A stretch of DNA of 64,000 bases, taken from an uncultured bacterium. Its GTDB lineage: Bacteria > Omnitrophota > Omnitrophia > Omnitrophales > JACQLI01. This document shows, piece after piece, positions 4,600-63,953 of the stretch. The stretch is from NCBI GenBank assembly GCA_964372875.1, contig CAYJTB010000002.1, positions 21,576-85,575 on the forward strand. Direction: 5' to 3'. Position 1 is the first letter of the stretch. The number at the start of each line of letters is the position of its first letter. The notes under the pieces are model-generated. The model had not been told where the DNA came from and made no database searches. It saw nothing but the letters and a program-made list of their open reading frames with translations. The position numbers and the translations under genes were made by a program.

Positions 4600-4612
4600 C
4601 CCTCAACTTACT

Positions 4613-6068: not shown

Positions 6069-6104
6069 AAAAAATTTACGCGAAGAGGAAGCCCTGAAAT
6101 CCGA

Positions 6105-18100: not shown

Positions 18101-18431
18101 CGCCTTCAATGAATAAAGCGCGAACGCCGTATTTCTCGTCCAGAAATTTTAGAAGGGCAAAAATCTTTTTCTGTGTCTCGGCGTGTGCGTGAACCGATTG
18201 GATATGAATGAGAGGAATATTTTCTGTTTTTGTGTCGGGAAGAAATGCTTCTTTAATCGAAGCAAGCTCCTGGGGAATTCCGAGGGGCATCAAAGACAAG
18301 GGAAGATTTTCTATGCCGCCTTCGGCCTTCGCGGGTGGAACGAGGATGGACGATGCAATGACACACATCGCGACCAAGAGAGATATAAACTTTTTATAAG
18401 TCTTCATTAATGTCATAAATCTAATTTTCAA
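6105..18431 (-). CDS. Giant secreted modular protein (4108 aa). It has a signal peptide, a Tiki/ChaN/TraB-like N-terminal domain, several unknown modules and a calcineurin-like metallophosphatase module. REP-encoded linkers and low-complexity linkers separate the modules.
   Basis: This is a single stop-free frame of 12,327 nt and the only minus-strand gene in the window. The N-terminus KFISLLVAMCVIASSILVPPAKA is a signal peptide. IHIQSVHAHAE...ALFIEGA...VLITGGFHADG (about 16850-18250) resembles the Tiki/ChaN fold. LIVIGDLHG...VITGDAIH...LPGNHDY...GGHTTT (about 9350-10130) are metallophosphoesterase motifs. The start could be TTG 18431, ATG 18416 or ATG 18407. Confidence 0.75.
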   Translation of the reverse strand: MKIRFMTLMKTYKKFISLLVAMCVIASSILVPPAKAEGGIENLPLSLMPLGIPQELASIKEAFLPDTKTENIPLIHIQSVHAHAETQKKIFALLKFLDEKYGVRALFIEGAGEKLNPDYFKFFDQNQLNVEVAQKLVEKGELTGAELFLIESQEKIPAYGIEDPDLYRDNLESFQIVMSRQNETNTFTKGLDGELDRLGTHLLTPHTRTLLRTNESFEAGQMELLSYAFELERRTKQILGVDLRNFESQKDWPQMIRLLRLQEAESGLDPERIQTDRQKLIADLKEIGVHPVLVHAFENLSFSPYQTGMVYDPGFNKNDLPRYLAEYLVVSTVDKGFSFDHYPYFTHYLEAAVLQSELDAERLFGEIERLFQNLIQAVAAQPEELKLVGLAQRGGLFERLFDLELTPKDYVKIQQAETIDRPLVRYLIDMQSLHDKTNLGPSQIIPANIRAIEYLYQQAMRFYQLAKKREDVMVEKILNPPSTVSSPPREEKSKMRENGVTVLITGGFHADGLSRAFRKKGISYTILSPRITEKTSSQDYISSLLGEKKTSFDVNYLEPAIKEISNAIRMRMTTRDQNVRPKIIIQEIKSVLQAIIETAKDERMAASRIIRAINQSSYASDRRFVLILSRTGEKAIVWDNVENKPLRNIYGAPIVIPFGTITVETPVLDARSAPTTQKEILADFELPGVINESSSAAPDISRSQTKTSSQSTLKKHPEELPSRYLSFQRLPSLVSIDAGKIIKPSTLMTNISNTTPILKNGGASVNTRLTTAEPTSTGINANSILPYSNLRSGVNKTYSPFAAMSVYPYSLKVNIFLTNKEIVFSRSEANLISDSRLLTSDRRGSEVHPNRLDSGTPPSSPERARAEVRASERTKDVAFVEAIQKLNLDIPENVQALHAIRNSIDINPYGMGDEKIEAFRKLPLPIIQSKGLKKRFEEELLLLKKIFPSLQKEFEDASYLGDPEKDAGKNHALFEAIIEEKNGAKLKEYLIDLFRKDPQTGRFINSSHIRFIRKWSSNFFVLDETKKSLLIPNFRRKGVEDFSIYIVEQFKKGLIEQAQSQDAFEKLAEDGFSKLALETLDKIASEKAIPNLNLLKKKIQKADQLARGANRSEARSEKNTGRFNEGVSSGVPGTSQSQTTSLSLQGSQISKSKQRPSQPLLSNVGDDASSGTVLNTFLQEGRREPTPIKYSQQLTSQPPFPLDSGGNIKNAKANPAKSPTTNAILTKILNWRKNPPATAAGTDSFQVSNNVRAATSRRSGEKISFMNRAPYALGSLAGVSFYINKYYNKNQTSRSEARSTQSEGLRSGPSVFDLSPSTTLGTEPSRRSEVHPNRLDSGTPPPSPERARAEMRADSHGTDEKRKLEMLRDNIKAKSGIPQKFHDRLNEDRLRLLYRSETLTVQELRRILEEKIKNQKGILGLTNDQLEKIVKIVGDLKGISSTQSTPAKLPKQLRFKVDPNLESIKQAISATIDWLIEQGYPHPEVLKNYKEAVKKAEPLPAELARQGMIYAKKKDDPSGTMTIRINDAHLYWRWNAIQNLDSLDYFFLGFASDIIREAWGGAAFKWSDPEHKELLKEGIPIIRNEAASLFEGNPQPFWPRDSVNRFLSKYDEQILRFVAILMANEFYETSRQEEAIKWGKEKGLFLPKRFQSSLRAAKGRDAQGLRALFEGRYEEILKAQGDPIRILEKEIQLGLGNFRAWASGLDNLTQRIYAFYFLSEFQRSIESQGKEGIDSKLQLSEAPPLEMFRSAAFRLHPEIQKIILSWQERTRADSRAEVPPADRPETPPSSPERARAEVRSEKNSGDVKLGVFGLTGVMAHRVPALGEVDRQAHRQGEYPDANGRDFKISHLVSSSLGIVTNPTNQDTNAMNRPTAANRQFTEPPARLPMPVTVEKYFETSSSILPDSSRRVRSFIKGEFNKDIFYSQEKFDLNKTTFLALPRAEVRAQPTPEPLEGGGETPEELRRLLDQSLIKLRGNLMEALKHHNNTGQRVSPEIVETIFREAGEAKSLIADLKNSMQNDPEKEAHLLQGLDYAVERLDDRLQDLKIAGGFEDNQGPRSEVRPNRLDSGTPPSSPERARAEMRNAETINDAGVSGGTARFQSKQQLQISEPKQRSEQTFQASSFFIKGQSATIIPNTKKLNVADRKNNLSQAFGILPNTPPTTAATKNAWNSVKEVFDIASNRFGVQNIFTSGLFSFHHTLAFQNGERVTNDLLKVNHNIIKDKITAPRSEARSTQPKGLRLGPSVFDLSPSTTLGTEPRRRSEVHPNRLDSGTPPSSPERARAEVRSDTKRERLEKIVAQQLEMRRGTFRPELWKPGKIVDFFLPYTDLDEQEIRRLVQTGLDQGQAISDSNFPLEENEQRALRSAVHSLVEAGTRGMVVTTLGPGKQGDELMETVETVIAELKTLKGKGQKIHLVLQVVNQSVEALLELEQVIKDRLLELPKTDRSRIDVEFKGIYGNLFDLPAHPEFIAPSHIFFWRNTWMGEHWTSETIKERARMIWERLKAPGVLILWEREITPNHESLEIQELKQTDLDPIPASLQSRSEARSTQSEGLRSGPSVFDLSPSTTLGTEPSRRSEVHPNRLDSGTPPSSPERARAEVRSKDNEVVQYVVQNYDTRTIKRALNFMKQRSYSPSIQEDEVIFRLLGELETHFGIVSRPSKINVLESARHYPQTGNGQSLTLETEKFRESGARAEVRPNRLDSGTPPSSPERARAEVRAKQDAVLDKEQMYEFFMKEGAEKFFARAVTALDAYPLHSQGEEINNRERSVRWLDDHGKPGALVEIKNADRLIVIGDLHGAYENLAAILKEVDIERALRKDKNAHLVITGDAIHTHRSELFEDPKAYADSFTTLLQILALKRRFPVQVHYLPGNHDYAHLPHEMGGLAIWQQKRLTTQNSFFEKEVFGEGKPFSEEALEGFKNYIQASPVVLKIHSEDDRTKILLAHAGAVHNIQSLKDVINFFTPEVRDLTRIPRSQKEQRQTNPLLETLWSRDYSERAIADYVEKNGVDFAIGGHTTTTMEQAISNNFSIVSLKERANLGWQNRFLIVDSTRYPIYLDLKLPIEGLRNAGDFSQPLLRKKLVDPQGNFAAKVANSTPKLLTPAGLFESDDPEARKGMSVGDAIKALQNRIKELLPVEKMAAFDYLKATETEYFRGGGYKVNRWTPDHLLFQAEDSPENQAGLEEQLKRFVLEFSPTGMKWRLYEIREPRKPPRFIADPVLDGLIDERDLETLSKMASQYKKENLPDEWKKTLEDRRLEFPPTKDELIRWFRSGDYSNILAIAGAVEIVFSPSRVKDAYAGIHKPSLHLEHFFVFDPIRRALEPMYDPHTDSRNFRSEARASDEELKQYLSKLWELAHREELIKSISEQSSGFGYEVKMLLNRVKLSPFSEKEVRPQDILFKAEKGDVLVGRILHLVETLQKVTEEGQVEITVPEGAKTQLETELYLVLGPNPEKPAETLLYSSKGEAQSIPSQLISSPYYHKVISTSERIPLIAPTHTKNIYETQLTAANGVEYKIQLQQLPSDKGEGGKIVVSNSVELEEGHGFYWNLTVEPDKNEVTLIESEKTAGGESTLTYSFTHPETNPEYKDPQSVLARFSSELMRYASALNTASQKEDVPNEEAKHFLFSTALFIRNLLEKGLPGQGENPNRSEMRSEVWSLTEPLARFDRNYKDLIDFLTTLEPRTELIEKLLRLKGELTPEDARKFYFQNVQGGKYEKENPVAVLTDNKSFADIANNVPLPSEYIKMFRVKSQPLTPAMEELIETLAGRIFALHLLKEQDRASLENLFRQPPQVPPTPPDTEAGRSEMRISPKTEVLTLSLMERAVKHRPYSNPKMDPKTVVRAILEIAKQMRWVFSPDDEEILPALIEFSKQSERPETESIQFNSEIARIFTLLAKGANQPGVHVATLDYVPSTSELRGLIVPLVENKKARVSIFVTPEAVKNQQDQDELTKQMDELTKLVPDGRANLVYAPDWIGLRKEVLKAAHEAHKQYFPEGEVKFQTFLGRYFVLSLPENLSDKIAEFGEDFGKSLRSVTYSIPEAKRAAYLVIMSGASTKLAQDVLSLSQKQDLFEINGSRFKIKSSAFALVEAIWKVFEAAKQMAIAA
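10270..10342. repeat. REP/MITE-like element, short form (two hairpins), in frame in the giant ORF
   Basis: CGCACCTCGG CCCTCGCCCGCTCAGGCGAGG ACGGAGGAGT ACCCGAATCCAACCGATTTGGG CGCACCTCGG. The element is bounded by a 10-nt direct repeat. On the minus strand it reads RAEVRPNRLDSGTPPSSPERARAEVR. Confidence 0.9.
10622..10797. repeat. REP/MITE-like element, long form (short form plus a second hairpin-rich sub-element), in frame in the giant ORF
   Basis: Nearly identical to 11566-11741 and 14377-14552. On the minus strand it reads RSEARSTQSEGLRSGPSVFDLSPSTTLGTEPSRRSEVHPNRLDSGTPPSSPERARAEVR. CCTCGG-containing 10-mers occur at both ends and at the junction of the sub-elements. Confidence 0.9.
11566..11741. 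repeat. REP/MITE-like element, long form
   Basis: Same sequence as 10622-10797 apart from a handful of substitutions. It lies immediately upstream (+ sense) of nested cassette A. Confidence 0.9.
11776..11804 (+). promoter_or_regulatory. Sigma70-like promoter of nested cassette A
   Basis: TTGACT (11776-11781), a 17-nt spacer, then TACCCT (11799-11804), with AT-rich sequence upstream. Confidence 0.5.
11854..12069 (+). CDS. Nested small two-TM membrane protein A1 (71 aa), antisense to the giant ORF
   Basis: GTG 11854 (or ATG 11890). There is a basic N-terminus, two hydrophobic helices (LTLFQAFLVAAVVGGVLG / LKLFFLSATFSFLVLGIIVA) and an acidic tail KKEEA. It is a paralog of B1, C1 and D1. Confidence 0.6.
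   Translation: MKIFWTPKRLEAMSKTSLTLFQAFLVAAVVGGVLGKIPNAWLKLFFLSATFSFLVLGIIVADWPLMKKEEA
12071..12163 (+). CDS. Nested single-TM peptide A2 (30 aa)
   Basis: The SD GAGGAGG lies 6 nt upstream of the ATG. Peptide: MFALIFALVLIFVIAAWIGIEQYRLKHRRH. Confidence 0.6.
   Translation: MFALIFALVLIFVIAAWIGIEQYRLKHRRH
12178..12250. repeat. REP/MITE-like element, short form
   Basis: CGCATCTCGG...GGGCGCACCTCGG. It lies 15 nt downstream of the stop of nested ORF A2. Confidence 0.9.
12651..12679 (+). promoter_or_regulatory. Sigma70-like promoter of nested cassette B
   Basis: TTGACT (12651-12656), a 17-nt spacer, then TAAACT (12674-12679), with AT-rich sequence upstream. ATG 12688 lies only about 9 nt downstream, so the leader may be very short. 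Confidence 0.5.
12670..12885 (+). CDS. Nested small two-TM membrane protein B1 (71 aa from TTG 12670; more likely 65 aa from ATG 12688)
   Basis: MKDRTRRLESGKMLLDVSKYFSTVTGIGSLAGG...LAAVGLFMAFVSWFVGFVTIPKDEETK, with the same architecture as A1, C1 and D1. Confidence 0.55.
   Translation: MLNSPLMKDRTRRLESGKMLLDVSKYFSTVTGIGSLAGGSVNWRLAAVGLFMAFVSWFVGFVTIPKDEETK
12882..13007 (+). CDS. Nested single-TM peptide B2 (41 aa)
   Basis: The ATG overlaps the B1 stop (ATGA), with the SD GAGGAA 5 nt upstream. Peptide: MTNFEITAIGIGIFALAVGLTVYLTERWDSMRHNSRKPKHA. Confidence 0.55.
   Translation: MTNFEITAIGIGIFALAVGLTVYLTERWDSMRHNSRKPKHA
13036..13105. repeat. REP/MITE-like element, variant short form
   Basis: It has the same ends (CGCACCTCGG / GGCACCTCGG) and the same first hairpin (CTCGCCCGCTCAGGCGAG). 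The second hairpin is replaced by a different self-complementary sequence (CTCCGGC CGGTCA GCCGGAG instead of ACCCGAATC CAACC GATTCGGGT). Confidence 0.85.
14377..14552. repeat. REP/MITE-like element, long form
   Basis: Near-identical to 10622-10797. It lies immediately upstream (+ sense) of nested cassette C. Confidence 0.9.
14581..14609 (+). promoter_or_regulatory. Sigma70-like promoter of nested cassette C
   Basis: TTGATA (14581-14586), a 17-nt spacer, then TAGACT (14604-14609), with AT-rich sequence upstream. Confidence 0.5.
14635..14844 (+). CDS. Nested small two-TM membrane protein C1 (69 aa)
   Basis: The SD AAGGAG lies 8 nt upstream of the ATG. Sequence: MKEIFSPDRREVAARTLFDTWKLSVPAAVAGGFFLQFNIFVKIAFVVGLLAGFALAFFMFPPESRGKGG. 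Confidence 0.65.
   Translation: MKEIFSPDRREVAARTLFDTWKLSVPAAVAGGFFLQFNIFVKIAFVVGLLAGFALAFFMFPPESRGKGG
14846..14947 (+). CDS. Nested single-TM peptide C2 (33 aa)
   Basis: The SD AAGGAGG lies 5 nt upstream. Peptide: MLVAVSILLVLVPAVLLAGMYLEQYLRKRRHLH. Confidence 0.6.
   Translation: MLVAVSILLVLVPAVLLAGMYLEQYLRKRRHLH
14963..15064 (+). CDS. Nested single-TM peptide C3 (33 aa)
   Basis: The SD AAAGGAG lies 8 nt upstream. Peptide: MDVALISIFGILVVIGTWFGIEKYQERRKRHLH. Confidence 0.6.
   Translation: MDVALISIFGILVVIGTWFGIEKYQERRKRHLH
15826..15898. repeat. REP/MITE-like element, short form
   Basis: CGCACCTCGGCCCTCGCCCGCTCAGGCGAGGACGGAGGAGTACCCGAATCCAACCGATTCGGGTGCACCTCGG. It lies upstream (+ sense) of nested cassette D. 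Confidence 0.9.
15991..16019 (+). promoter_or_regulatory. Sigma70-like promoter of nested cassette D
   Basis: TTGACT (15991-15996), a 17-nt spacer, then TACACT (16014-16019), with AT-rich sequence upstream. Confidence 0.5.
16045..16251 (+). CDS. Nested small two-TM membrane protein D1 (68 aa)
   Basis: TTG start with the SD AAAGGAGAG upstream. FTPLRRFEYGRMLLALIPVLVGSAVV...RIGVVLLILVISVLGFIILPASMETKEGRR. Confidence 0.6.
   Translation: MFTPLRRFEYGRMLLALIPVLVGSAVVSRVFTEAPPFFRIGVVLLILVISVLGFIILPASMETKEGRR
16253..16363 (+). CDS. Nested single-TM peptide D2 (36 aa)
   Basis: The SD GGGAGG lies 7 nt upstream. Peptide: MIDTATAALLGVFLMLIVMMSWFGIEKYLERRKKTH. Confidence 0.6.
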   Translation: MIDTATAALLGVFLMLIVMMSWFGIEKYLERRKKTH

Positions 18432-37146: not shown

Positions 37147-38226
37147 ATGATTAATTTACTCATTCAAGCAGCCCTCGAAAAAGGCGCCTCAGACCTTCAC
37201 CTCTCGGTGGGCCGCGGACCCACTTACCGTATTCATGGCGACCTCATTTCCTTTGACCCCAAACCTTTAACTCCCCAAGACCTGGAAACGATGACTCGTG
37301 AAATCACCACCGAAGAACATCGAAAAAAAATTGCTGAGGTAGGAGGTGTAGATTTTGGGTTCTCTTTCAACGAGCAAGCACGGATTCGTGCGTCGGTTTT
37401 TAAAGAAAAGGGAAATTTTGGAATCGCACTGCGCCCATTGCCCAACCGTTTTTTTAAATTCGAAGAGATTGGACTGTCAGAAAAAGTTATCGAGCTTTTG
37501 AACCGGCCTCGCGGCATGATCCTTGTCACAGGTCCGACGGGTTCCGGAAAAACGACCACCTTGGCGTCCATGCTCAATTACATCAATGAAAACCTCCCCA
37601 AACATATTATTACGGTTGAGGATCCAATCGAATTCATGCACCCTCACAAAAAAGCCTTGATTACGCAGCGTGAAGTGGGCGAGGACGTCTCTGATTTTTC
37701 TGAAGCCGTGGTCAAGGCCCTTCGCCAGGATCCGGACGTTATTCTTATCGGTGAAATGCGCGATCTTGCAACGATGGAATCCGCCATTCGTGCAGCAGAA
37801 ACCGGACACCTGGTTTTTGCGACCTTGCACACGACAGGCGCGGCCAGAACCGTCGACCGTATTATTGATGTCTTTCCATCGCACCAACAGGCACAAGTTC
37901 GCGTTCAGCTTTCTGCAACCCTTATTGCCGTTGTCTCGCAGACCCTCTTGCCTAAAGCGGACGGAAAAGGCCGTGTGGGCGCCTTCGAAATCATGATTGC
38001 AACACCCGCTATCCGGAATCTGATCCGGGAAGGAAAGACTTATCAGATTACCTCTGAGATCCAGACCGGGGCCCGGTACGGAATGAAACTCTTGGATGAT
38101 CACTTACGCGAGCTTTATGAAGCCAATCTCGTCTCTTTTGATTCTGCTATGCAGGCCGCTTACGAACCTAAAGAACTCTCCGAGAAAATTGTTCGGACCG
38201 TAGGTGCGGGCAAGGCGAAAAAATAA
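37147..38226 (+). CDS. pilT: Type IV pilus retraction ATPase PilT
   Basis: Walker A GPTGSGKTTT, the block DPDVILIGEMRD and the PilT signature AIRNLIREGK. Confidence 0.88.
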   Translation: MINLLIQAALEKGASDLHLSVGRGPTYRIHGDLISFDPKPLTPQDLETMTREITTEEHRKKIAEVGGVDFGFSFNEQARIRASVFKEKGNFGIALRPLPNRFFKFEEIGLSEKVIELLNRPRGMILVTGPTGSGKTTTLASMLNYINENLPKHIITVEDPIEFMHPHKKALITQREVGEDVSDFSEAVVKALRQDPDVILIGEMRDLATMESAIRAAETGHLVFATLHTTGAARTVDRIIDVFPSHQQAQVRVQLSATLIAVVSQTLLPKADGKGRVGAFEIMIATPAIRNLIREGKTYQITSEIQTGARYGMKLLDDHLRELYEANLVSFDSAMQAAYEPKELSEKIVRTVGAGKAKK

Positions 38227-48504: not shown

Positions 48505-48865
48505 TTTTCTTGGATTGGGCGGACGCGGGGAGGGTCTGGCCTGGGGTTTTTTGAAAAAACAAGGTTACAAGATCCTCGAAAAAAACTACCGCACCAAACT
48601 TGGCGAAATTGATGTGATCGCTTCAAAAAAGCGTACCCTCGTATTTATCGAAATCAAAACAAGACGCAATCATAATTTCGGCCTGCCTGAAGAGGCGATC
48701 GATTGGAAAAAACGCCGGAAAATGATCCGTGCGGCGGAAATTTATCTCCAGTCAAAACGGCTAGAGAATAAAGAGGCGAGATTTGATATTCTTGCCATCA
48801 CATGGAACGGCGAAGAAGAGCCGCATTTTAATCTCTTGGAAAACGCTTTCGAAATAGAGGCCTGA
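48497..48865 (+). CDS. yraN: YraN-family (UPF0102) endonuclease-like protein
   Basis: ATG 48497 overlaps the rnhB stop. GEGLAWGFLKKQGYKILEKNYRTKLGEIDVIA...VFIEIKTR is the typical YraN pattern. Confidence 0.85.
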   Translation: MSDFLGLGGRGEGLAWGFLKKQGYKILEKNYRTKLGEIDVIASKKRTLVFIEIKTRRNHNFGLPEEAIDWKKRRKMIRAAEIYLQSKRLENKEARFDILAITWNGEEEPHFNLLENAFEIEA

Positions 48866-51192
48866 TGAATTTTTTTAATCCGCTCGATATCCGCAAAGGC
48901 GAGGGCAGAAAAGCCCTCCTCATGTTCCTTTATTTTTTTATCACCATCACGGTCCTCTATGTTTTGAAACCGGTAAGAAGTTCTTTATTCCTGGAAGAGC
49001 TGGGAAGCCAAAAGCTCCGCTATGTCTATTTAGGCGAGGGAGTTTTTCTCCTTTTTGTGACGTGGATTTATGTGCAGCTTGCCAAACGGGTGCAGCGGAA
49101 AACTTTTTTTACGGGCGTCCTGGCGATCTTTATCTCGAACTTAATTATATTCTGGTGGCTTTTTCATCTCAAGGTTCCTTACTTGAGTGCCTTCTTTTAT
49201 ATTTGGGTTGCGTGTTTTTCGATTGTAAGCGTCACACAATTTTGGACCCTTGCCAACGATATTTTTAATCCGCAAGAAGCGAAACGCCTCTTCGGTTTGA
49301 TCATCAGCGGCGGAAGTGCCGGGGGAGTGATCGGAGGTCTTTTAACTAACCGCGCCGTCCGTTGGGTTCACACCGAAGACTTGCTGCTTCTTTCCAGCGT
49401 TCTTTTATCAAGCTGCATTGTCCTGGTGGGATTTCTTTGGCAATACCTCCCGGAAGGGTCGCCGGGTTTTGGAAAAGAAAGGGCCACGATCGAAGTCCAA
49501 TCCACACGGAAGCTTTTTATGACCTCAAAATACCTTTGGATGCTTGCCGGCATTGTCATGTTCGCCAAAGTTGCGTCCACCGTCGTGGATAACCAATTCA
49601 ACGCAATTGTGGAACTTCACTTGGTAGGTAAGCAAGCCAAAACAGCCTTCTTCGGGGCCTTCAGCGCCGGGCTTAATGTGATTTCTTTCTTGATGCAAAT
49701 TTATGCGACGAGCATGTCGCTTCGCCTCTTGGGGATCGGAATTTCACTCGCCCTTCTTCCTGTGGGTTTGTCTGGAGCGTTTCTTTTCACGGTTCTTATC
49801 CCAGCTTTGGGGACCGCTACCTTCCTTAAAATTTTTGATGGAAGCATTAATTATTCCATTCAGCAGGCTTCCAAAGAAGTGCTCTACTTGCCGCTTTCCT
49901 CCAGTGTCCGCTACCGCGCCAAACCGGTGATCGACATGCTGATTTACCGCGTCTCAAAAAGTTTGGGGGGGCTTCTGATCATTATTTCCGCAACCCTTTT
50001 TGCGATTCCCAACGACCGGACCGGGATTTTGATTTTTTTCTTAGCGCCGTTTTGGCTTTTTTTGGTTTGGAAAATGAAATCGTCCTACCTTCATTTATTA
50101 CGTGAAAGGCTTTGGACGGACAAAGGCAAGGGCTCCATTTCAAAACCTCGCCGGGTCACGGAAGTGCTGAGTTTCCTTTACGATGAAAAAACCGTAGGTG
50201 AATTAAAGACTTTTTTGAAAGAAGAGTCGACCTTGGCCCGAAAGATGGCGGCCGCTGCATGCCTTCTTTATCACAGGGCAGGCAAGGATCTGGAGGCCAC
50301 CCGGAGACTGGTCAATGATATGATTCGCTGGGAAGCTCTGGAGACGCCTTCTAAGGATTCTGCCGAAAATGGCATGGGCCAAGAACGGGAATTCTTAGAT
50401 GAACTTCTCTTGCGGCAAGCCGAGAAGGAAGTTTCGAATCAACCAACTTCATTGTCGCAGGAGGATGCGCCTGCCGTTTTAAAAAGGCTCGAGACCCTTT
50501 TGGAAGATCCCAAGCAGGGGATGGGCATCAAACGCTCTGCGTGCGAATTTCTGGAACACCAGGCCGGCCAAAAAACAGCCGACGCCCTTTTTAAAATTCT
50601 CTCCCAAACCCAAGGTCATGCGCTCCGGTTTCTTTTAATCCAGACTCTTTCAAAGGTACAGGAACGCAATCCCTCGATTCGCTGGAACCAGGCGCTCGTT
50701 AAAAAAGAAATTTTCAGGGAAACCGAGCTTTATTTTAAAATCGGAAAACTCTCGAATTTTTATCAAGAAAGCCCCGTCAAAAAAGAAGAATTCTTGGAAG
50801 TAGCCCTCGGCGCACTCTCAGATGAAAGCCTTGAACGTTTGTTTCGCTGTTTCGGATTGCTCTATCCCGGAGAGGCGATGCGGATCATCTATGAGCGTCT
50901 TTTAGAACACCCTCATCCCGACGCTGTTCGCTCCCACGCCCTGGAGCTTTTGCATAACCTGGTGGGTCCAGAATTTTACGGGCTTTTGGAAAAACTCTTT
51001 GATCAAAAACCTTTGAGCAAGATTTCAGAGCAAGAGGCCGTCTCTATCCTTGAAGGAATGCTGAATTCTTCCGACAGGTGGCTTTCTCTTGTTGCAAGAT
51101 TTTTAGTGGGCGAGACAGACTTGAAAGGCCGATGGCCTAAATTGGGTGGTTCGGTTTCTGATTATTTGAAATTTGAATCTTTGGATGTTTAG
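48865..51192 (+). CDS. Npt/TLC-type nucleotide (ATP/ADP) transporter-like membrane domain fused to a C-terminal HEAT-repeat domain
   Basis: The N-terminal RKALLMFLYFFITITVLYVLKPVRSSLFL and about 12 TM helices resemble the PF03219-type NTT/MFS family. The roughly 330-aa C-terminal part is alpha-helical and repeat-like. Confidence 0.55.
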   Translation: MNFFNPLDIRKGEGRKALLMFLYFFITITVLYVLKPVRSSLFLEELGSQKLRYVYLGEGVFLLFVTWIYVQLAKRVQRKTFFTGVLAIFISNLIIFWWLFHLKVPYLSAFFYIWVACFSIVSVTQFWTLANDIFNPQEAKRLFGLIISGGSAGGVIGGLLTNRAVRWVHTEDLLLLSSVLLSSCIVLVGFLWQYLPEGSPGFGKERATIEVQSTRKLFMTSKYLWMLAGIVMFAKVASTVVDNQFNAIVELHLVGKQAKTAFFGAFSAGLNVISFLMQIYATSMSLRLLGIGISLALLPVGLSGAFLFTVLIPALGTATFLKIFDGSINYSIQQASKEVLYLPLSSSVRYRAKPVIDMLIYRVSKSLGGLLIIISATLFAIPNDRTGILIFFLAPFWLFLVWKMKSSYLHLLRERLWTDKGKGSISKPRRVTEVLSFLYDEKTVGELKTFLKEESTLARKMAAAACLLYHRAGKDLEATRRLVNDMIRWEALETPSKDSAENGMGQEREFLDELLLRQAEKEVSNQPTSLSQEDAPAVLKRLETLLEDPKQGMGIKRSACEFLEHQAGQKTADALFKILSQTQGHALRFLLIQTLSKVQERNPSIRWNQALVKKEIFRETELYFKIGKLSNFYQESPVKKEEFLEVALGALSDESLERLFRCFGLLYPGEAMRIIYERLLEHPHPDAVRSHALELLHNLVGPEFYGLLEKLFDQKPLSKISEQEAVSILEGMLNSSDRWLSLVARFLVGETDLKGRWPKLGGSVSDYLKFESLDV

Positions 51193-56056: not shown

Positions 56057-57787
56057 ATGTCTCAATCTACCCGAACACTCTTTATAGGTTTTGTCGTTGG
56101 GTTCCTCTTTGGACTCGTACTCATCGGCGTCATCAGGCCTCGTGGCATTCGTCCCTCCGATCGAGTCATAGCTAAGTTTGGTGGTGTCGAGCTCAAAGAG
56201 AATGAACTCAGAGAACGAATTGCAGAGCAGCTTGCACCCGCTGAAAATGAAGAATATCGAAGTCTCCAGGCGGGCGCCCAAGATTGGATCAATACCGGGC
56301 TTTTAGAAAAGGAAGCCAAAGCCCGAGGCGTTGATATCAAAGAAATCTATAAAGATGTCTGGAACCGCGTGCATGTCGGCTATGAGGATATGCTGCAAGT
56401 CTATAAGCAAAACAAGGAAAGTTATGGCAATCAGCCCTTTGAGCAGGCAAGCGGTTTGATCGCCTCGCAGTTGCGTACCATCAAATATGGCGAAGCGAAG
56501 AAAGCTTATGTCCAAGAACTTCATAAAAAATATCACGCCGAGATTTTCTTAGAAAAACCAAAAATTCTTATCGAGGGTTCAGCCCTGCCAATCCAACTTA
56601 AAATAGGCGAATCGGCCGCGGTGCAGGTAGAGGGAGACAAGATTCAGCCGGAAGCCCCCTCGGTTAAAACAGGAGCCGCCCCCGAGGTTGGGGTCGGCGC
56701 AAAGGGTGCTCCTGCCAAGGGATCGCCTAGTGCGCCTATCAAGATGGTTGAATTTGCAGATTTTCACTGTCATTTTTGCAGAAAAGTTGCCGCGACTTTG
56801 GAAAAAGTTGTGCAAAATTATCCTGACAAGGTTCAGTTAATCTTTCGGCATTACCCTCTTTCGCCTTCTCCTGGGAGCGAGTCCTTTTTAACCCATGAGG
56901 CGTCCGCTTGCGCAAATGAGCAAGGTAAATTTTGGGAATTTTACGATGAAATTTATAAAACCGAATCTTCTCCAAAGCCTGATGATTTGGAAGGTCTGGC
57001 CTCCAACGTTGGTCTGGATATGGGAAAATATAAAGAATGCATGCAGAGCCACCGTTATCAAAGCGCTATTCAAAATGATATTGCCGCAGGAAAAGCAAAA
57101 GGGGTCCAAGGTACACCCACGATTTTTGTCAATGAGGAAACCGTCAACGGCGCTTATCCTTATGAATATTTTGTGGATCTAGTTAATAACATTCTCACCC
57201 CGGGAAAAGTTAAGCCCACCCAAAAACCTGCCCAGCCCTCACCGGCCGCGGAAGGCCCCGTTCAATTTAATAACGATGACTTAAAAGGCAGACCCAGCAT
57301 AGGACCTGACAATGCACCCATCACGATCGTAGAATTCAGCGATTTTCATTGTCCTTTCTGTAAACGCGTGGGCCCCACCTTGGAACAAGTCATGAAAAAC
57401 TACAAAGGCAAAGTCCGGAGGGTTTGGCGTCATTATCCTCTTCCCATGCATGCCGGAGCCGACCGCACCCATCAAGCCTCGGAATGCGCCCATGAACAAG
57501 GCAAATTCTGGCAATACCACGACAAAATTTTTGAGACCCAAGGTCCGAAGCATGACCAGTTACTTACGGAAATTTCGAAACAAGTAGGACTCGATCAAAA
57601 GAAATTTGAGAAATGTCTCTCCCAAGGCAAATACAAAAATCTTATTCAACAGGAAATTGCCGAAGGCAGCAAAGTGGGAGTCCGGGGTACGCCTACTCTT
57701 TTTGTCAACGGTCAAAGACTTCCCGGAGCCGTACCTTATGAAAGTTTCGACTCAATTATCAAGAGCGAATTAGCAAAAAAATCTTAA
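56057..57787 (+). CDS. Membrane-anchored protein with a SurA-N-like region and two tandem DsbA-like thioredoxin domains
   Basis: An N-terminal TM helix and two CxxC sites (FADFHCHFCRK, FSDFHCPFCKR). Each site is followed by a QG(T/V)PT block. Confidence 0.75.
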   Translation: MSQSTRTLFIGFVVGFLFGLVLIGVIRPRGIRPSDRVIAKFGGVELKENELRERIAEQLAPAENEEYRSLQAGAQDWINTGLLEKEAKARGVDIKEIYKDVWNRVHVGYEDMLQVYKQNKESYGNQPFEQASGLIASQLRTIKYGEAKKAYVQELHKKYHAEIFLEKPKILIEGSALPIQLKIGESAAVQVEGDKIQPEAPSVKTGAAPEVGVGAKGAPAKGSPSAPIKMVEFADFHCHFCRKVAATLEKVVQNYPDKVQLIFRHYPLSPSPGSESFLTHEASACANEQGKFWEFYDEIYKTESSPKPDDLEGLASNVGLDMGKYKECMQSHRYQSAIQNDIAAGKAKGVQGTPTIFVNEETVNGAYPYEYFVDLVNNILTPGKVKPTQKPAQPSPAAEGPVQFNNDDLKGRPSIGPDNAPITIVEFSDFHCPFCKRVGPTLEQVMKNYKGKVRRVWRHYPLPMHAGADRTHQASECAHEQGKFWQYHDKIFETQGPKHDQLLTEISKQVGLDQKKFEKCLSQGKYKNLIQQEIAEGSKVGVRGTPTLFVNGQRLPGAVPYESFDSIIKSELAKKS

Positions 57788-57825: not shown

Positions 57826-58335
57826 ATGAAGCAAATTGTCCAGCGGCTTCTAAGACTACTTCCCATCTTATTTATGTGTGCGGGGGTGAATGTTTACGCC
57901 GAGGAAATCGTTCAGCTCGAGATTATTTCCCAAACCGCGGGTTCTTTCACTGCAAACCAATCTTCCTTTACTTTAACGTTCCCTGATTTTAAAAAAAATG
58001 CGGTGACAAATTCTGTAAGCGTCGGTTATTCCATCCAGGGTAATGAGGTCTTACGTACGGATGACGTGGTGATGGCAAGACTTGACGCCTCCTTTGATAA
58101 TATTGCTTTTGAAGCCCTTTTTGCCTCTTATACTGCAAATGGCGGGGACGCTACCTTGGCTGCTTCACAATCCGATTTCATCGCCGTCGGCACCAACGAG
58201 GTAGGGATTGTCCGAAAAGAAGGCGGGCAAATGCTCGACGGAAGCTTTGTCGTTACCTATCGGGCCCAGGCCCTTGAAGATCAGCCTGCGGGAGAAGAAG
58301 TTAGGACCTTAACGGTAACTTTCGCGCCGACTTAA
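57826..58335 (+). CDS. Secreted fibre-subunit candidate P1 (169 aa), a paralog of 63338-63886
   Basis: The signal peptide LLPILFMCAGVNVYA. SSFTLTFPDF...LDASFDNIAFEA...DATLAASQSDFIAVGTNEV...GSFVVTYRAQA aligns with P6. Confidence 0.6.
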   Translation: MKQIVQRLLRLLPILFMCAGVNVYAEEIVQLEIISQTAGSFTANQSSFTLTFPDFKKNAVTNSVSVGYSIQGNEVLRTDDVVMARLDASFDNIAFEALFASYTANGGDATLAASQSDFIAVGTNEVGIVRKEGGQMLDGSFVVTYRAQALEDQPAGEEVRTLTVTFAPT

Positions 58336-58343
58336 AGAAAACG

Positions 58344-58871
58344 ATGATACAAAAAAAAGCATTTTTTCTTATGGGGATATTCGGTACCCTGCTTTTTCTT
58401 CCCCTCAATGGGTTGTGGGCGGATACCGAGATAAAGATTGTCAGAATTTTATTTGAAATCGAACCGGTGACCGCCATGAAAGTCGCTTCCGATACCGGCG
58501 TCAAGGCGGTTCAGTTGGGCCCCCTTTCTCCTCACGCGGAAGTGCCCGCTCAATCGCTTGAGGTCTCCATTTTGTCGAACATCCGTCAATCCTATCAAAT
58601 CTATCACCGCCTGGAGGAAGATGTCACGAATGCCAGGGGAACAAAATTTCCTCATGAAAAATTACTTTTTATGGTGGCAGGAGGAAAAGAAGGAGGGACG
58701 AGTGCGTTTTCCGGTTTGTCCAGCATCCCTTCGGGCGAGACTTTAATTTTCCGTTCAAAACCGGATGGCGGTTCGGATGTTTTTCGCATTTTATATTCGG
58801 TAGAAAATACGAAACTTTTCGAGGCGGGTCTCTACTATGGTAATATTTATCTCGATATTCGAACAGAATAA
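58344..58871 (+). CDS. Secreted fibre-subunit candidate P2 (175 aa)
   Basis: It has a signal peptide and the C-terminal pattern FRSKPDGGSDVFRILYSV...EAGLYYGNIYLDIRTE, which is shared with P3 and resembles SCPU/DUF4402-type subunits. Confidence 0.55.
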   Translation: MIQKKAFFLMGIFGTLLFLPLNGLWADTEIKIVRILFEIEPVTAMKVASDTGVKAVQLGPLSPHAEVPAQSLEVSILSNIRQSYQIYHRLEEDVTNARGTKFPHEKLLFMVAGGKEGGTSAFSGLSSIPSGETLIFRSKPDGGSDVFRILYSVENTKLFEAGLYYGNIYLDIRTE

Positions 58872-59376
58872 GAAAATTTTAGCGTTGTCTTGGCTCCTCC
58901 TTTTAGGGGCTGGGTTTTTTGTCCCTAGGGCGTGGGCCGCGGATGAGATCAACCTTCAAGTTACCTTTATTGAAGGTGGAGATTCACTCGATTTTGGCCG
59001 ATTAAGAAATTTAGAAACTGACGGCACGCCTACCACCGAGGCGGCCACTCGTCAAGTGAGACTAAACATTGATCCTGTGGGGGGAAGCTTGAAGTCCTAT
59101 ATCGTTACTCAAATTGTCCAAGAAACTCCGGCCAATCAAGTCGGTACTCCCGTTCCGCTCGATACCGTTTTATATCGTGTTCAAGAAGAAGTTGGATCTG
59201 GAGTCGTAAGAGTCCCCAACCAAACTCCTTTGGTTTCCGGAGAGGAAGAAATTTATCGCTCCAGCCCCACGGGGGGATCCTCTCAACTCCTTGTAATCTA
59301 TGATCTTGCAGCATCTCCGCAGCAGGAAGCAGGCAGTTATTCGGGAAGCATTGCCTATAGGGTTTCTGCGGTATGA
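58837..59376 (+). CDS. Secreted fibre-subunit candidate P3 (179 aa)
   Basis: The signal peptide LALSWLLLLGAGFFVPRAWA, and the C-terminal YRSSPTGGSSQLLVIYDL...EAGSYSGSIAYRVSAV, paralogous to P2. Confidence 0.55.
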   Translation: MVIFISIFEQNKKILALSWLLLLGAGFFVPRAWAADEINLQVTFIEGGDSLDFGRLRNLETDGTPTTEAATRQVRLNIDPVGGSLKSYIVTQIVQETPANQVGTPVPLDTVLYRVQEEVGSGVVRVPNQTPLVSGEEEIYRSSPTGGSSQLLVIYDLAASPQQEAGSYSGSIAYRVSAV

Positions 59377-60227
59377 AGAAAATATTTCTTGTTATATTTT
59401 TTCTCTGCCTTGGAAGCTTGTCTCTTTTTGCTGAAGAGGCCGCTGCGCCCGCTAAAAAAGGATTCGGTGTTTCTATTTCACCTTCGCTGATTCGTCTGAC
59501 CGGTAAACCTGGGCAGGCCCAAAATGCTACGGTTCGGGTATTGAATAATGGAGTAAGCCCTACGCAAGTCATTACGGATATGAGCGATGTAGGCAACATG
59601 GTCGACAAAGAAGGAAGATTGACCCGCCAATTTCCCCCCGCAGGAACCACTCCATTTTCCTGCGCGAAGTGGACGCTTCTACGAGAAAATCAATTTATGC
59701 TCGGGCCCAAACAATTCAAAGATGTCACCTTTGTCATTTCTCCTCCCGCGGACAGTGTGGGAGGTTCGGCATGCGTTGTTTTTTTTAAAGGGATTCCTCC
59801 GCCCGAAGACAGTACAGGCGAGGCCGGCAAATACGCGCAGGCAACGATACAAATCCAACCGCGTCTCGGAGCCATGGTTTTTTATGAGATCGAAGGCACC
59901 GTCCGGCGGACCGCCAAACTCCTTGATATCAAATCCGATCCCCCCACCGCAGACACTCCTTTAAAAATTCACTATACTTTTAAGAACACGGGCAACACGG
60001 ATGTTCTGATCTCGGGCACGTTTTATATTTTGGATTCCAACAAAACTTTGGTCACCAAAGGAGATTTAAAAACCATCCGGATGTTTCCCGGCGATGAAGG
60101 CGCGAGCGAGACAGAGTCCACCGTCAGTTCCCTTTCATCCGGAAAATATCAATTGGTGGTAAGTTTTGAGTTGGGGCCCAATGTCCGGGAGGTGATTGTT
60201 AAGGAGCTTGAATTTTCAATTCCCTAG
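59373..60227 (+). CDS. Periplasmic two-Ig-domain chaperone-like protein P4 (284 aa)
   Basis: It has a signal peptide, the PapD-like opening VSISPSLIRLTGKPGQAQNATVRVLNNG, and a second beta-sandwich-like half. The start overlaps P3 by 4 nt. Confidence 0.5.
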   Translation: MKKIFLVIFFLCLGSLSLFAEEAAAPAKKGFGVSISPSLIRLTGKPGQAQNATVRVLNNGVSPTQVITDMSDVGNMVDKEGRLTRQFPPAGTTPFSCAKWTLLRENQFMLGPKQFKDVTFVISPPADSVGGSACVVFFKGIPPPEDSTGEAGKYAQATIQIQPRLGAMVFYEIEGTVRRTAKLLDIKSDPPTADTPLKIHYTFKNTGNTDVLISGTFYILDSNKTLVTKGDLKTIRMFPGDEGASETESTVSSLSSGKYQLVVSFELGPNVREVIVKELEFSIP

Positions 60228-63125
60228 GTGTCTTACCCCCGCTTAGGAAAATGGAAAAATGTTTTTTTCTGCCTTCTATTTGCCTTCGCGATTTCTAAAA
60301 CCTCTTCTGCTGAGACGTCGCCCTCAATCGAATTGGCAGTTCATTCCCCCGAAAATCTCGCGGTTCAGTCTTACAGTGTGGAAATAGGAAAGTCTCTTGC
60401 CCTTCCTGCCCGCAATCCATCGCGTTATTTAGTTTCTTCTCCCGAGGTGATTCGAATCACACAGGTGAGACCGGATGCCATTGATCTGGTCGGCCAGAAG
60501 TTGGGATCGACCCTCATCCTGGTGTGGGAAGAGACGGGGATCAGGAGTATTCAAATCACCGTAACGCGTGAGATGAAAGAAATAGAGAAAATACAGCAGA
60601 TCAAACAAGGGTCTTCCAAACTTTATCAGTCCCGGAAAAGCAGGTCCTTTAAGACAACCTACGAATCCGGCTATTCCATTCTCGAACAAGGCAAGATTTT
60701 AAACCGGGTCAGCGAGGTGCGTAAAATTTATAATCACGCCGTGAGCTTGAAGGGCAATACCCCCTTGGGTGATCTTGCGGGAAGCTTCTTCTATGAATAC
60801 CGCAAAGAACAAAGCATGAGAAAATCCGTGGCCCTTCCAAGAAACGCCTGGATAGGATTCTTTGATACGGATTTGCCCGGGAAAATTTTGGACCACTATG
60901 ACATGATCGGAGGAGAACAATATCTCAGTTTAAGTGAGTTTGGGTTTCCCGGCGCAAGATACTCGGGCTTTACCCTGTTACCTACAGAAAAAAGAGCAGA
61001 GAAGCCGGAAAAGGGACGTTTGGACTTGTCTTTTTTTGTCGGTCGCGAAGAGCGCGGCGCTTTTTTAGATAACCCCGCCAATACCAACCAGAGAGATATT
61101 AAACTCAATAACCGATTCACCGGTGAGAAGGTGGATTATCATCTATGGGAGCGCGGAAAAATTTCCCTGGGTACTTATCAAAAATGGGGCGGCCCCACCG
61201 CAGCCAATCAGGCGGAAAAAAATTACGACACAGGGTTTGATTTTGGCTTTCCTTATGTGCGTTTCAAAGGGCAAACGGGTTTGGACAACCGAAGACACAC
61301 GGCCATGCGGTACCACGCCCTATTTGAAAACAGCTGGACCCACACCGAGAATATTTTTCTGTACGTCGATCCAAATTACCGCACGATTACGGGAACCACA
61401 TTAGATCAGGGCCGCCGCGGCTGGCAGCTGCATTCAAGATTTCTCCCTTTGATGCCTTGGATAAAATCCGACGCCGTGGAATTAAAATTTGACGCCGACA
61501 TCACCCGGGATCTTTTGTCAGTCAATCCCAAACACCCGCACGATTACAACAAGTACTTTAAAGCGGGTGCGGGAACCCGCCTTCCTTTTAAATTAAAAAA
61601 TGAGGTGTCCTTTGAATATCGCAATCGTTTAGCGACTTCTTTCCCCTACACGCGCAAAAGAATCCACGAGCGGCTGAGTAGGGAAATCTCATTTAATTCG
61701 AGATGGATTAGACGCATGCGCCTTTACGGTCTTTCCACCCTTGAGCGTTATGGAGATGCGGAAAATACACCGGGTTTTAATGCCATCCGGTACGAAGTGG
61801 GCGGAGGAAATTACGTTTATTTGTTAGGAGGAATCTGGCTTTCCGGACAATATCTTTGGGACCGATTGGATGAGAAGGAAGCAAATCTGCATCCGGATAA
61901 AAGGACAAACCCCGGGCAGCTCACTTTAGCGGGAGGGGTCAATCATTCTTTCCGCAGGCTTCCTATCAGTGTGGGGACAAGCTTTCGCTACACCGATGAA
62001 AGGAAAACCATCCCCAAGCTTCACGACCCTTTCATTAATGAAGATCGATTTGAGGTGCGGGGTTCTGTCAATGTGAGGCTTCCTGATAACAGCACCTTTT
62101 ATGTCGAAACAAGGGCCACAAGAATAGAGTCTTTGGTGGGCAATCCCAAACGCATGGAGCTTACACTCGCCTTCGGGACACGTTTAAATTTTGATACCCA
62201 TTTTTATTTTCCCCAAAAGGCAACCATCGAAGGGTGCTTTTTTTTAGATAAGAATGCCAACGGACTCAAGGATGCCGAAGAAGAAGGCCTTCCGGGTATG
62301 GAAGTGGGAGTGGAAAGGGGGCCCAAAACCAAATCCGGCCACTTGGGTTTTTACCGGCTCAGACTTTGGGAAGGACTTGTTGTTTTTAAAGCTACTGACA
62401 AAATTCCCGAGGGATACTTCTTTACCACGCCTAGCGAACACGAACTTGAAATGTTGCCTAAAATGAAAACCCGCGTTGATTTCGGAATTGTTCCGCAAAC
62501 CCAAGTAAAAGGAAGGGCTTATGTGGATATCAATGAAAATTTTATTTTTGATAAAGACGATGTGCCAGTTCCAGCATTACAAGCGGTTCTTGATTCGGGG
62601 GAGTTTGCAGTGACTTCGTCGCAGGGACTTTATTCGATCCTTCAAATCAAACCGGGAGCTAACCGAATCCGTCTTTACATTCCTAGCATCCCCACAGGTT
62701 ACCGAACCATCACTCCGATTGAAGAGAAGTTTGAAGGCAAGCCCGGTGAACTTACGGTTTTTGATATCGTGATGACGATTGAGAGACACGTAGGCGGAAG
62801 CGTTTTTCTCGATACTAATAAAGATGGACGCCGGGCGCTGGATGAGCCGGGCATCGCTAATGTCTCGCTTTCTATCGACGCTCAAAAAGCAACAACGGAT
62901 AAGAGTGGAAAATACTCATTCAAAGACTTAAAGCCGGGGATAAAAAAGATAAGAATAGAAAAGTCGAGTTTAAGGTCGGATTACACCCCATCACTCGATA
63001 CGCTGGAGATTGAAATACCAGCAGGTTTCATAGCCCAAACCGACCTTAACTTTCCCGTCCAAGAAAAAGATGTACCCATGCCGGCATTGGAAGAGTCTCA
63101 AATTGACCCGCCAGGCACGAATTAA
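60228..63125 (+). CDS. Large outer-membrane assembly protein P5 (965 aa). It has a secretin/pilus-formation N-terminal-like domain, a predicted barrel and C-terminal SdrD-B / CarboxypepD_reg-like repeats.
   Basis: The GTG start abuts the P4 stop, and there is a signal peptide. VIRITQVRPDAIDLVGQKLGSTLILVWEE resembles the pilus-formation N-terminal region. The C-terminal repeats are FLDKNANGLKDAEEEGLPGMEV, YVDINENFIFDKDD and FLDTNKDGRRALDEPGIANVSL...TTDKSGKYSFKDLKPG. Confidence 0.55.
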   Translation: MSYPRLGKWKNVFFCLLFAFAISKTSSAETSPSIELAVHSPENLAVQSYSVEIGKSLALPARNPSRYLVSSPEVIRITQVRPDAIDLVGQKLGSTLILVWEETGIRSIQITVTREMKEIEKIQQIKQGSSKLYQSRKSRSFKTTYESGYSILEQGKILNRVSEVRKIYNHAVSLKGNTPLGDLAGSFFYEYRKEQSMRKSVALPRNAWIGFFDTDLPGKILDHYDMIGGEQYLSLSEFGFPGARYSGFTLLPTEKRAEKPEKGRLDLSFFVGREERGAFLDNPANTNQRDIKLNNRFTGEKVDYHLWERGKISLGTYQKWGGPTAANQAEKNYDTGFDFGFPYVRFKGQTGLDNRRHTAMRYHALFENSWTHTENIFLYVDPNYRTITGTTLDQGRRGWQLHSRFLPLMPWIKSDAVELKFDADITRDLLSVNPKHPHDYNKYFKAGAGTRLPFKLKNEVSFEYRNRLATSFPYTRKRIHERLSREISFNSRWIRRMRLYGLSTLERYGDAENTPGFNAIRYEVGGGNYVYLLGGIWLSGQYLWDRLDEKEANLHPDKRTNPGQLTLAGGVNHSFRRLPISVGTSFRYTDERKTIPKLHDPFINEDRFEVRGSVNVRLPDNSTFYVETRATRIESLVGNPKRMELTLAFGTRLNFDTHFYFPQKATIEGCFFLDKNANGLKDAEEEGLPGMEVGVERGPKTKSGHLGFYRLRLWEGLVVFKATDKIPEGYFFTTPSEHELEMLPKMKTRVDFGIVPQTQVKGRAYVDINENFIFDKDDVPVPALQAVLDSGEFAVTSSQGLYSILQIKPGANRIRLYIPSIPTGYRTITPIEEKFEGKPGELTVFDIVMTIERHVGGSVFLDTNKDGRRALDEPGIANVSLSIDAQKATTDKSGKYSFKDLKPGIKKIRIEKSSLRSDYTPSLDTLEIEIPAGFIAQTDLNFPVQEKDVPMPALEESQIDPPGTN

Positions 63126-63248
63126 GCTGTCCTTATTTCAAGACTAAAAAAAGTTTAATCCTTTACTCTTATTCTATAACCCAAAATGAAAACACAAGTT
63201 ACAGCATAGACGTTTTATTAAATACTATATAAATTTATTTACAAAGAC

Positions 63249-63277
63249 TTGACAAAATGTTTTTTATTGGGTAAGGT
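63249..63277 (+). promoter_or_regulatory. Sigma70-like promoter of P6
   Basis: TTGACA (63249-63254), a 17-nt spacer, then TAAGGT (63272-63277), in a 210-nt AT-rich intergenic region. Confidence 0.5.
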
Positions 63278-63337
63278 TCTGACATTCATGGGAGCTAAGC
63301 CACATTCCCAGAAGAATCTAAAAAGGAGACAACTCAG

Positions 63338-63886
63338 ATGAAAACAACGTTGAAAAAAGTAAATGTAGTTGTACTAACCGTATTGTTAGGTTTAGGCACA
63401 GCTACTATGGGTTTTGCAGCTGATTGGGTAACCACCAACCACGCTGTGACAGTTCAAATTCCGGAAGTATTGTCGATTTCCGCCGATGCCTCAAGCTTTA
63501 CCCTCGCGTTTCAGGATTTTATAACCACAGGGGAAGAGTCTTGGGCGCAGACTGTGACGTATACAATGCAAAGCAACAACATGCGTCAAGCGGATGGATC
63601 ACCGGCAATCAATGCGAATCTGGATTTTGCGTATGATCGTTTGGATCTGAAGGCTCAAGTAGGAAACTATACGAAGACCTCAGGCAATACGGAACTCGCA
63701 GCCCAGCAAGCCGGATATGTGACCATCGGTACCGAAAACGTCACTTTGGCTAAAAAGACAAATTCGTTAGGAGATGGAAAATTGTTGAATGGTTCCATTC
63801 CCATTACGTATAAAGCCGTTGCCACAAGCGATGTCCCGTCGGGTGACCAGACTCACATCTTGAACATTACGTTAACTACGATCTAA
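63338..63886 (+). CDS. Secreted fibre-subunit candidate P6 (182 aa), a paralog of P1
   Basis: The SD AAAGGAG, and the signal peptide VVLTVLLGLGTATMGFA. SSFTLAFQDF...NLDFAYDRLDLKA...NTELAAQQAGYVTIGTENV...GSIPITYKAVA aligns with P1. Confidence 0.65.
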   Translation: MKTTLKKVNVVVLTVLLGLGTATMGFAADWVTTNHAVTVQIPEVLSISADASSFTLAFQDFITTGEESWAQTVTYTMQSNNMRQADGSPAINANLDFAYDRLDLKAQVGNYTKTSGNTELAAQQAGYVTIGTENVTLAKKTNSLGDGKLLNGSIPITYKAVATSDVPSGDQTHILNITLTTI

Positions 63887-63911
63887 GCCAAGAATCAAAC
63901 TGGCTACAAAT

Positions 63912-63953
63912 AAACAGCCATCTCGCAGAGATAACGCGAGATGGCTGTTTTTA
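63912..63953 (+). terminator. Rho-independent terminator after P6
   Basis: AAACAGCCATCTCGC - agagataac - GCGAGATGGCTGTTT, followed by a T-run (TTTTTAT). Confidence 0.8.

Follow-up and report, generated by a model that had tools for sequence, protein, structure and literature searches.

Chaperone-usher pili such as CFA/I (CfaA-CfaC, alternate class) and Csu (CsuC-CsuD, archaic class) are encoded by loci that combine small subunits, a chaperone, a large outer-membrane protein and a further subunit, and to our knowledge all known chaperone-usher pili depend on one homologous usher family. Here we analyzed a locus of similar composition in a window of 64,000 nucleotides (by window we mean the whole stretch of DNA; contig CAYJTB010000002.1 of assembly GCA_964372875.1, positions 21,576 to 85,575) from an uncultured bacterium of the phylum Omnitrophota. 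An earlier reading of this DNA, hereafter the original prediction, had proposed a six-gene surface-fibre locus with Csu-like gene order, and all six open reading frames (P1 to P6) were recovered with unchanged positions and lengths (Table 1). With a probability of roughly 60%, we read the locus as encoding a surface-fibre assembly system that works on the chaperone-usher principle with a different outer-membrane machine. While the mechanism class, a PapD-fold chaperone and strand donation, is known, both the subunits and the outer-membrane component fall outside the described families.

The likeness to chaperone-usher systems extends beyond gene content. P4 is predicted to adopt the two-domain PapD-like fold, with an F1-G1 loop that is long and a G1 strand in which hydrophobic residues alternate. 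In P5, a barrel stands between a periplasmic domain at the N-terminus and beta-sandwich domains at the C-terminus. The last strand of the small subunits reaches the C-terminus, and a strand resembling an N-terminal extension is missing from one subunit type. In contrast, sequence places none of the proteins in PapD_N/PapD_C, Usher, Fimbrial or SCPU. The N-domain of P5 is T2SS-T3SS_pil_N, and the P5 barrel forms a separate, very rare family. The proposed Csu-like gene order held only in part: the operon logic runs parallel, but P6 is a single-domain (182 aa) paralogue of P1 and not a two-domain tip adhesin such as CsuE, and genes of the P1/P6 type vary in number on both sides of the core.

Genes for the chaperone, the outer-membrane protein and the subunits lie together and are inherited together. 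P5 relatives in named genomes come almost all from Candidatus Omnitrophota metagenome-assembled genomes, with one labelled Planctomycetia. The order A(n)-B-C-chaperone-barrel-A(n), where A, B and C stand for the families of P1/P6, P2 and P3, was found in every Omnitrophota-type locus complete enough, at P5 identities of 26-57%. Genes for B, C, the chaperone and the barrel are always single-copy and adjacent, and A-type genes number 1-3 upstream and 0-2 downstream. The neighbourhood conservation raised in the original prediction is strict and spans loci with different flanks, for example cysteine/methionine metabolism in locus L009 and a sensor kinase with an NtrC-type regulator in L006. Four far more distant loci of the barrel family (profile E 1.5e-11 to 2.2e-5) keep a P4-family chaperone directly upstream (E 1e-45 to 1e-60) and a B/C-type subunit gene nearby; in 2 of the 4 the chaperone carries a third domain. 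Chaperone-family proteins of ~370 aa with a third immunoglobulin (Ig)-like domain at the C-terminus are encoded in L020 (2571-3683) and L021 (7883-9001).

P4 had been described as chaperone-like, and its predicted structure agrees. We found 34 cluster representatives of P4, and a metagenome scan with the P4 profile yielded five additional loci only. An AlphaFold2 model built from a 32-sequence alignment (predicted local distance difference test, pLDDT, 87.4; predicted template modelling score 0.76) consists of two beta-sandwich domains, 33-173 and 181-283, and disorder within the mature protein is confined to a loop at ~142-163. In a Foldseek search against PDB the best match was Enterococcus faecium WxLIP (3e-14), followed by the pilus chaperones CfaA (1e-10) and then Caf1M, CsuC, YadV and FimC (~1e-8). 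By this model, P4 has the two-domain PapD-like chaperone fold. Its F1-G1 region comprises a variable loop of ~15 residues (142-156) and then the nearly invariant (A/T)x(I/V)QIQPRLGxxxF; the place and alternating pattern of this strand are those of the donor strand in chaperone-usher chaperones. Two arginines are invariant in the family: R41 lies in the first strand, and R164 opens the strand at the G1 position. In PapD, the C-terminus of the subunit is anchored in the chaperone cleft by two conserved basic residues, Arg8 and Lys112. The only stretch that hhalign aligned between P4 and FimC is short and not significant (probability 1%, E=0.05); within it ('IRLTGKPGQ...VRVLNNG' vs 'TRVIYPAGQ...LAVTNND') R41 falls on FimC Arg8. 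At the sequence level, the P4 profile gave no match at E<=10 among PDB sequences. Among 31 family members, PapD_N appeared below threshold in 7 (best E=0.013) and PapD_C in none, and WxLIP_PGBD gave sub-threshold matches in 15.

The best structural match of P4 belongs to a described system of its own, the WxL/WxLIP (DUF916-DUF3324) clusters of Firmicutes (PMC10599100; PDB 9i1y, 9i25), in which one such protein is likewise encoded alongside several small clients. A WxLIP hairpin at the same position is predicted by AlphaFold to complete the beta-sandwich of the WxL client (PMC10599100), and the P4 model also fits a WxLIP-type two-domain fold with the hairpin in this strand-donating position. 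The locus could then be a diderm counterpart of these clusters, in which P4 would permanently partner small, non-polymerising beta-sandwich proteins, stabilising and anchoring them in the envelope or at the surface, and P5 would be their export pore or anchor, with no fibre formed. We consider this unlikely. In monoderms, where it acts on peptidoglycan, WxLIP has a transmembrane helix at its C-terminus, whereas P4 has no such membrane anchor and terminates in a beta-strand ('...KELEFSIP'). WxLIP clients carry WxL domains, whereas Pfam scans of the small proteins of the locus and of their families found neither a WxL domain nor a W-x-L motif. No outer-membrane barrel and no polymer are known from WxL systems, whereas here a barrel protein of ~940 residues is always adjacent, and the strand pattern and natural three-domain fusions of the subunits (see below) point to head-to-tail linkage.

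The original prediction had also described P5 as a non-canonical usher candidate with a secretin/CpaC-type N-terminal domain and three SdrD_B/CarboxypepD_reg-like repeats at the other end, and both ends were confirmed. Pfam places T2SS-T3SS_pil_N at residues 47-112 (29.6 bits vs a cut-off of 23) and finds SdrD_B and CarboxypepD_reg at the C-terminus, where three repeat starts of the form 'G-x-V/Y-F/V-x-D-x-N' can be read directly near residues 669, 762 and 857. Close homologues are scarce, with only nine recovered by word search. A profile of the central part (residues 115-662), scored against 1.84 billion cluster representatives, recovered 50 proteins at E<=0.001, of which the full-length ones measure ~740-1140 aa. 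T2SS-T3SS_pil_N was present in 36 and SdrD_B in 38 of 39 family members, and isolated Pfam matches in single members were to SlpA_C, Porin_4 and CooC_C (0.0069). In an AlphaFold2 model of low overall confidence, the N-terminal beta-domain (pLDDT ~70-85) and the last repeat are confident, ~21 long hairpin strands are predicted between residues 208 and 652, and a highly conserved insert at aa 274-330 is left unmodelled; the barrel region of this model matches generic outer-membrane barrels. A crude amphipathic-strand scan agrees with the model only loosely, and we give it little weight. From the domain matches, the model and the generic barrel match, we read P5 as an outer-membrane beta-barrel-type protein with domains in a predicted order like that of ushers: a soluble N-domain, then the barrel, then beta-sandwich C-domains. 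In locus L008 (65-2754) the P5 homologue is broken into two open reading frames, 65-1261 and 1285-2754, either a pseudogene or an assembly error.

Other identities for P5 were considered. It shares the PF13629 'pilus formation protein N-terminal region' domain with the Tad/Flp secretins CpaC/RcpA, but the PF00263 secretin domain was found neither in P5 nor in the 39 family members, beyond the N-domain P5 consists of a beta-barrel region of monomer type and the SdrD_B repeats, and no Tad genes are adjacent. As the defining domains (Secretin, TonB_dep_Rec, plug domain) are absent from all 39 members, both the secretin and the TonB-dependent-receptor readings were rejected. P5 might instead be a surface adhesin, inverse-autotransporter-like or porin-type, that displays its SdrD_B repeats, while the small proteins and P4 would have an unrelated envelope role such as a coat or S-layer-like sheet formed with no strand exchange. 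This appears quite improbable: the central region, with ~520 residues and ~21 or more predicted strands, lies far above the 12-strand barrel of inverse autotransporters (intimin/invasin), no IAT_beta match was found in P5 or in the 39 members, which also lack TonB-dependent-receptor and plug domains, and the strict adjacency with a PapD-fold chaperone would otherwise be hard to explain.

The small proteins fall into related families. The paralogy of P1 with P6 and of P2 with P3, already part of the original prediction, was clear (33% identity, E=5e-23 and 31% identity, E=2e-11, respectively), and P1 fits the hidden Markov model (HMM) of family A at E=6e-55. Between families B and C, hhalign detects homology at a probability of 98.9%. 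Its alignment of family A with B spans both from end to end (152 columns) but is of low confidence (66.7%), and A-family HMMs cross-hit B/C-like proteins in distant loci. Given these three links, we treat families A, B and C as one superfamily. The label SCPU/DUF4402-like, once given to P2 and P3, did not survive: Pfam scans gave no match in any of 26 family members, and near-full-length matches below threshold occur only in very distant subunit relatives (Fimbrial 0.016; DUF4402 0.057 and 0.2). At a significant level, the window proteins and 49 family members all stand outside the known pilin families Fimbrial (PF00419), SCPU (PF05229) and DUF4402 (PF14352). Searches of PDB sequences with single distant subunits gave nothing meaningful, and hhalign against the E. 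coli Fim pilins returned short stretches, mostly in the N-terminal leader region, with non-significant probabilities below 15%.

The layout of these proteins is nevertheless informative. Their final beta-strand ends 1-3 residues from the C-terminus and, unlike the subunits of chaperone-usher pili, the mature forms contain no cysteine. Mature A and B proteins open with an extra short strand, here called beta0, that closes in a conserved proline ('AVTVQIP' in P6, 'ILFEIEP' in P2). C proteins have no beta0, and in all family members the distance from their mature N-terminus to the shared LDFG/LGP/FTLxF motif is ~12 residues shorter than in A and B. Two natural proteins of ~460 aa (L020:103-1497 and L022:5069-6451) consist of three tandem B/C-type domains, in which beta0 sits between domains 1/2 and 2/3 and is absent before domain 1. 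These tri-domain proteins resemble natural 'pre-linked' subunits. The beta0 pattern, h-x-h-x-h-x-P, also resembles the invariant chaperone motif TIQIQP. From beta0 and the C-terminal strand we infer a layout of the kind expected under donor-strand complementation and exchange, in which the C-type protein would come first and donate no strand; this makes P3 a candidate first (tip) subunit.

On the preferred reading, assembly may proceed as follows. In the periplasm, P4 would capture each small subunit by inserting its G1 strand (TIQIQPRLG, following the flexible loop) into the open groove that a strand-deficient Ig fold would leave in the subunit. The C-terminal strand of the subunit would be held by R41 and R164. 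The complexes would dock on the N-terminal T2SS-T3SS_pil_N domain of P5, where beta0 of the incoming subunit would displace the chaperone strand; repeated beta0 exchange would link the subunits head to tail, and the growing fibre would exit via the P5 barrel. P3, having no beta0, would be incorporated first and end up at the tip, P2 would act as adaptor, and the shaft would consist of A-type proteins (P1/P6 and further paralogues in relatives), chiefly of P6, which would be transcribed separately. The principle proposed here, small beta-sandwich subunits joined by a donated strand, is shared by fibres that have no usher, namely TasA, the archaeal bundling pili and the type V pili of Bacteroidia. 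Those systems, however, rely on lipoprotein sorting and proteolysis or on a SipW-type peptidase and have no PapD-fold chaperone, and their components are absent here.

Several points count against this reading. No two-domain adhesin is encoded at the locus. By sequence P4 falls outside PapD_N (PF00345) and PapD_C (PF02753), and structurally it stands slightly nearer to WxLIP, a protein regarded as a stable anchor and not a transient chaperone. P5 has no detectable homology to ushers (PF00577), and only 9 sequences went into its model, which is poor (pLDDT 45.9). Per-member scans and profile searches of 49 subunit family members gave no meaningful Pfam or PDB-sequence match.

Some of the same evidence bears on the possibility that the locus is an extremely diverged member of the true chaperone-usher class, a distant archaic-type operon whose P5 would share ancestry with the PF00577 ushers, and whose subunits would share theirs with the SCPU/DUF4402 pilins. 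The usher-like domain order of P5, the weak CooC_C match in one member of its family, the sub-threshold DUF4402 and Fimbrial matches in distant subunits and the presence of CfaA and CsuC among the best chaperone matches would all fit such an origin. Yet Usher, PapC_N and PapC_C are absent from the 39 P5-family members, the central profile found nothing at E<=10 among PDB sequences in a set that contains FimD, PapC and Caf1A entries, and hhalign against FimD gave a probability of 0.2%. The ends of P5 belong to other families as well, PF13629 at the N-terminus and SdrD_B, in place of usher C-terminal domains, at the other end. This origin therefore seems rather improbable, and the view that P5 is no canonical usher, as first proposed, stands. 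Tentatively, and with somewhat less than even confidence, we suggest that the locus represents a separate undescribed class that unites a PapD/WxLIP-fold chaperone, a new cysteine-free subunit superfamily and an assembly pore that arose independently of PF00577 ushers.

Within the fibre reading, P6 deserves separate attention. Its orthologues are 54-58% identical in loci where P5 identity is only ~40-52%, and among the A-type genes it is the best conserved. A promoter and a strong terminator of its own had been assigned to it. By direct reading, TTGACA (63249-63254) is followed after a 17-nt spacer by TAAGGT (63272-63277), and the strong ribosome-binding site AAGGAG (63323-63328) lies 9 nt ahead of the ATG. 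Downstream, a perfect 12-bp stem (63915-63926/63936-63947) with a 9-nt loop precedes TTTTT (63948-63952). The elements are thus present, but the -10 hexamer is weak, agreeing with TATAAT at only 3/6 positions. A consensus scan listed neither the promoter-like site nor the terminator, because of this 3/6 match and the 9-nt loop. Taken together, the conservation of P6 and the expression signals of its own are in keeping with a major structural subunit, and P6 is our candidate for the major shaft subunit. As to regulation elsewhere in the family, in L006 (region 2860-7412) the sensor kinase and NtrC-type sigma-54 activator lie directly upstream of the cluster. A search for sigma-54 sites gave one match, in L006 only (TGGCAT-N5-TTGCA, 62 nt ahead of an A-type gene, position 6808); with a chance expectation of ~0.7 in the scanned DNA, this single match is about at chance level.

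Table 1. Coordinates of the fibre locus and its parts (positions in the window).
Feature	Position	Strand	Description	Basis
P1	57826-58335	+	A-type small secreted subunit, 169 aa, Sec signal peptide; divergent paralogue of P6	
P2	58344-58871	+	B-type subunit, 175 aa; mature N-terminus with extra strand 'VRILFEIEP' (beta0-Pro) ahead of first core strand	
P3	58837-59376	+	C-type subunit, 179 aa; beta0 absent, mature N-terminus leads directly to '...GGDSLDFG'	
P4	59373-60227	+	Predicted periplasmic two-domain PapD/WxLIP-fold chaperone, 284 aa, without C-terminal membrane anchor	
P5	60228-63125	+	965-aa outer-membrane protein, GTG start; proposed export/assembly platform ('usher analogue')	
P5, N-terminal periplasmic beta-domain	60366-60566	+	T2SS-T3SS_pil_N (PF13629), aa 47-113	Pfam
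P5, central region	60645-62207	+	~aa 140-660, novel beta-barrel-type domain, no Pfam family	Model, profile searches
P5, C-terminal repeats	62217-63077	+	Three SdrD_B / CarboxypepD_reg-like (prealbumin-fold) repeats	Pfam
P6 promoter-like site	63249-63277	+	TTGACA-17-TAAGGT, weak -10	Direct reading
P6	63338-63886	+	A-type subunit, 182 aa; mature N-terminus '...HAVTVQIP-EVLSISAD'	
Terminator after P6	63915-63952	+	Intrinsic terminator	Direct reading

The genes are as tightly packed as first described: P2 and P3 overlap by 35 nt, P3 and P4 by 4 nt, and P4 and P5 abut. Sec-type signal peptides can be read directly on all six products, and a lipobox on none. Pfam and NCBIfam scans assigned no family to P1, P2, P3, P4 or P6, and no further copies of the six families were found within the window. 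The public gene call on an identical sequence (L016) begins P2 27 nt later, giving 166 aa; since the longer form has the better signal-peptide n-region (KK) and the public call is shorter, the true start of P2 is uncertain. In relatives, a second A-type subunit gene follows the P6 orthologue (L001 11765-12358, L009 13887-14468), and as the window stops 114 nt past P6 (63887-64000), a seventh gene may lie just outside.

Upstream, P1 begins 38 nt past the end of a DsbA-like gene (56057-57787, +), with a small hairpin in between. The product is a membrane-anchored protein of 576 aa with two DsbA/thioredoxin domains. Given this short distance, P1-P5 may be co-transcribed with the double-DsbA gene. 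A functional role of that gene in the fibre system was considered and rejected: the adjacency is limited to close relatives and the mature subunits have no cysteine, which makes a functional link unlikely.

Elsewhere in the window, a 775-aa protein (48865-51192, +) contains a TLC ATP/ADP-translocase domain (E=4e-13); ATP/ADP translocase is an energy-parasitism marker reported for host-dependent Omnitrophota (PMC10066038). A giant open reading frame of 4108 aa (6105-18431, -), whose sole Pfam match is a calcineurin-like phosphoesterase at residues 2792-3019, resembles the 'big ORFs' described for the phylum (PMC10066038). The PilT-like ATPase previously noted ~20 kb upstream of the locus was found at 37147-38226 (+; T2SSE, E=6e-50). 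Next to it on the downstream side come polA, rho and prfA, the ~9 kb scanned in that direction contained no pilus genes, and the ATPase is not related to the fibre locus.

Omnitrophota are ultra-small uncultured bacteria with suspected predatory or parasitic lifestyles. In such ultra-small, probably host-dependent cells, the function of a fibre would most likely be attachment. The main survey of the phylum mentions type-4a and Tad pili only (PMC10066038), and the literature searched gave no description of such a system in Omnitrophota, in keeping with the original prediction of an undescribed variant. The locus would therefore add a third candidate attachment organelle for the phylum beside those two pili (PMC10066038). 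All six products are currently unannotated hypothetical proteins, and the result supplies annotations for six protein families. If the assembly pore did arise independently, evolution would have produced the 'usher' function at least twice. The chaperone would be intermediate between the WxLIP proteins of Gram-positive bacteria and the pilus chaperones of Gram-negative bacteria, a structural bridge from the Firmicutes WxLIP proteins to the chaperones of diderm pili. Pairing of a PapD-fold chaperone with unrecognisable subunits and an unrelated outer-membrane platform would mean that the assembly of donor-strand fibres is a more modular process than has been assumed, and perhaps an older one.

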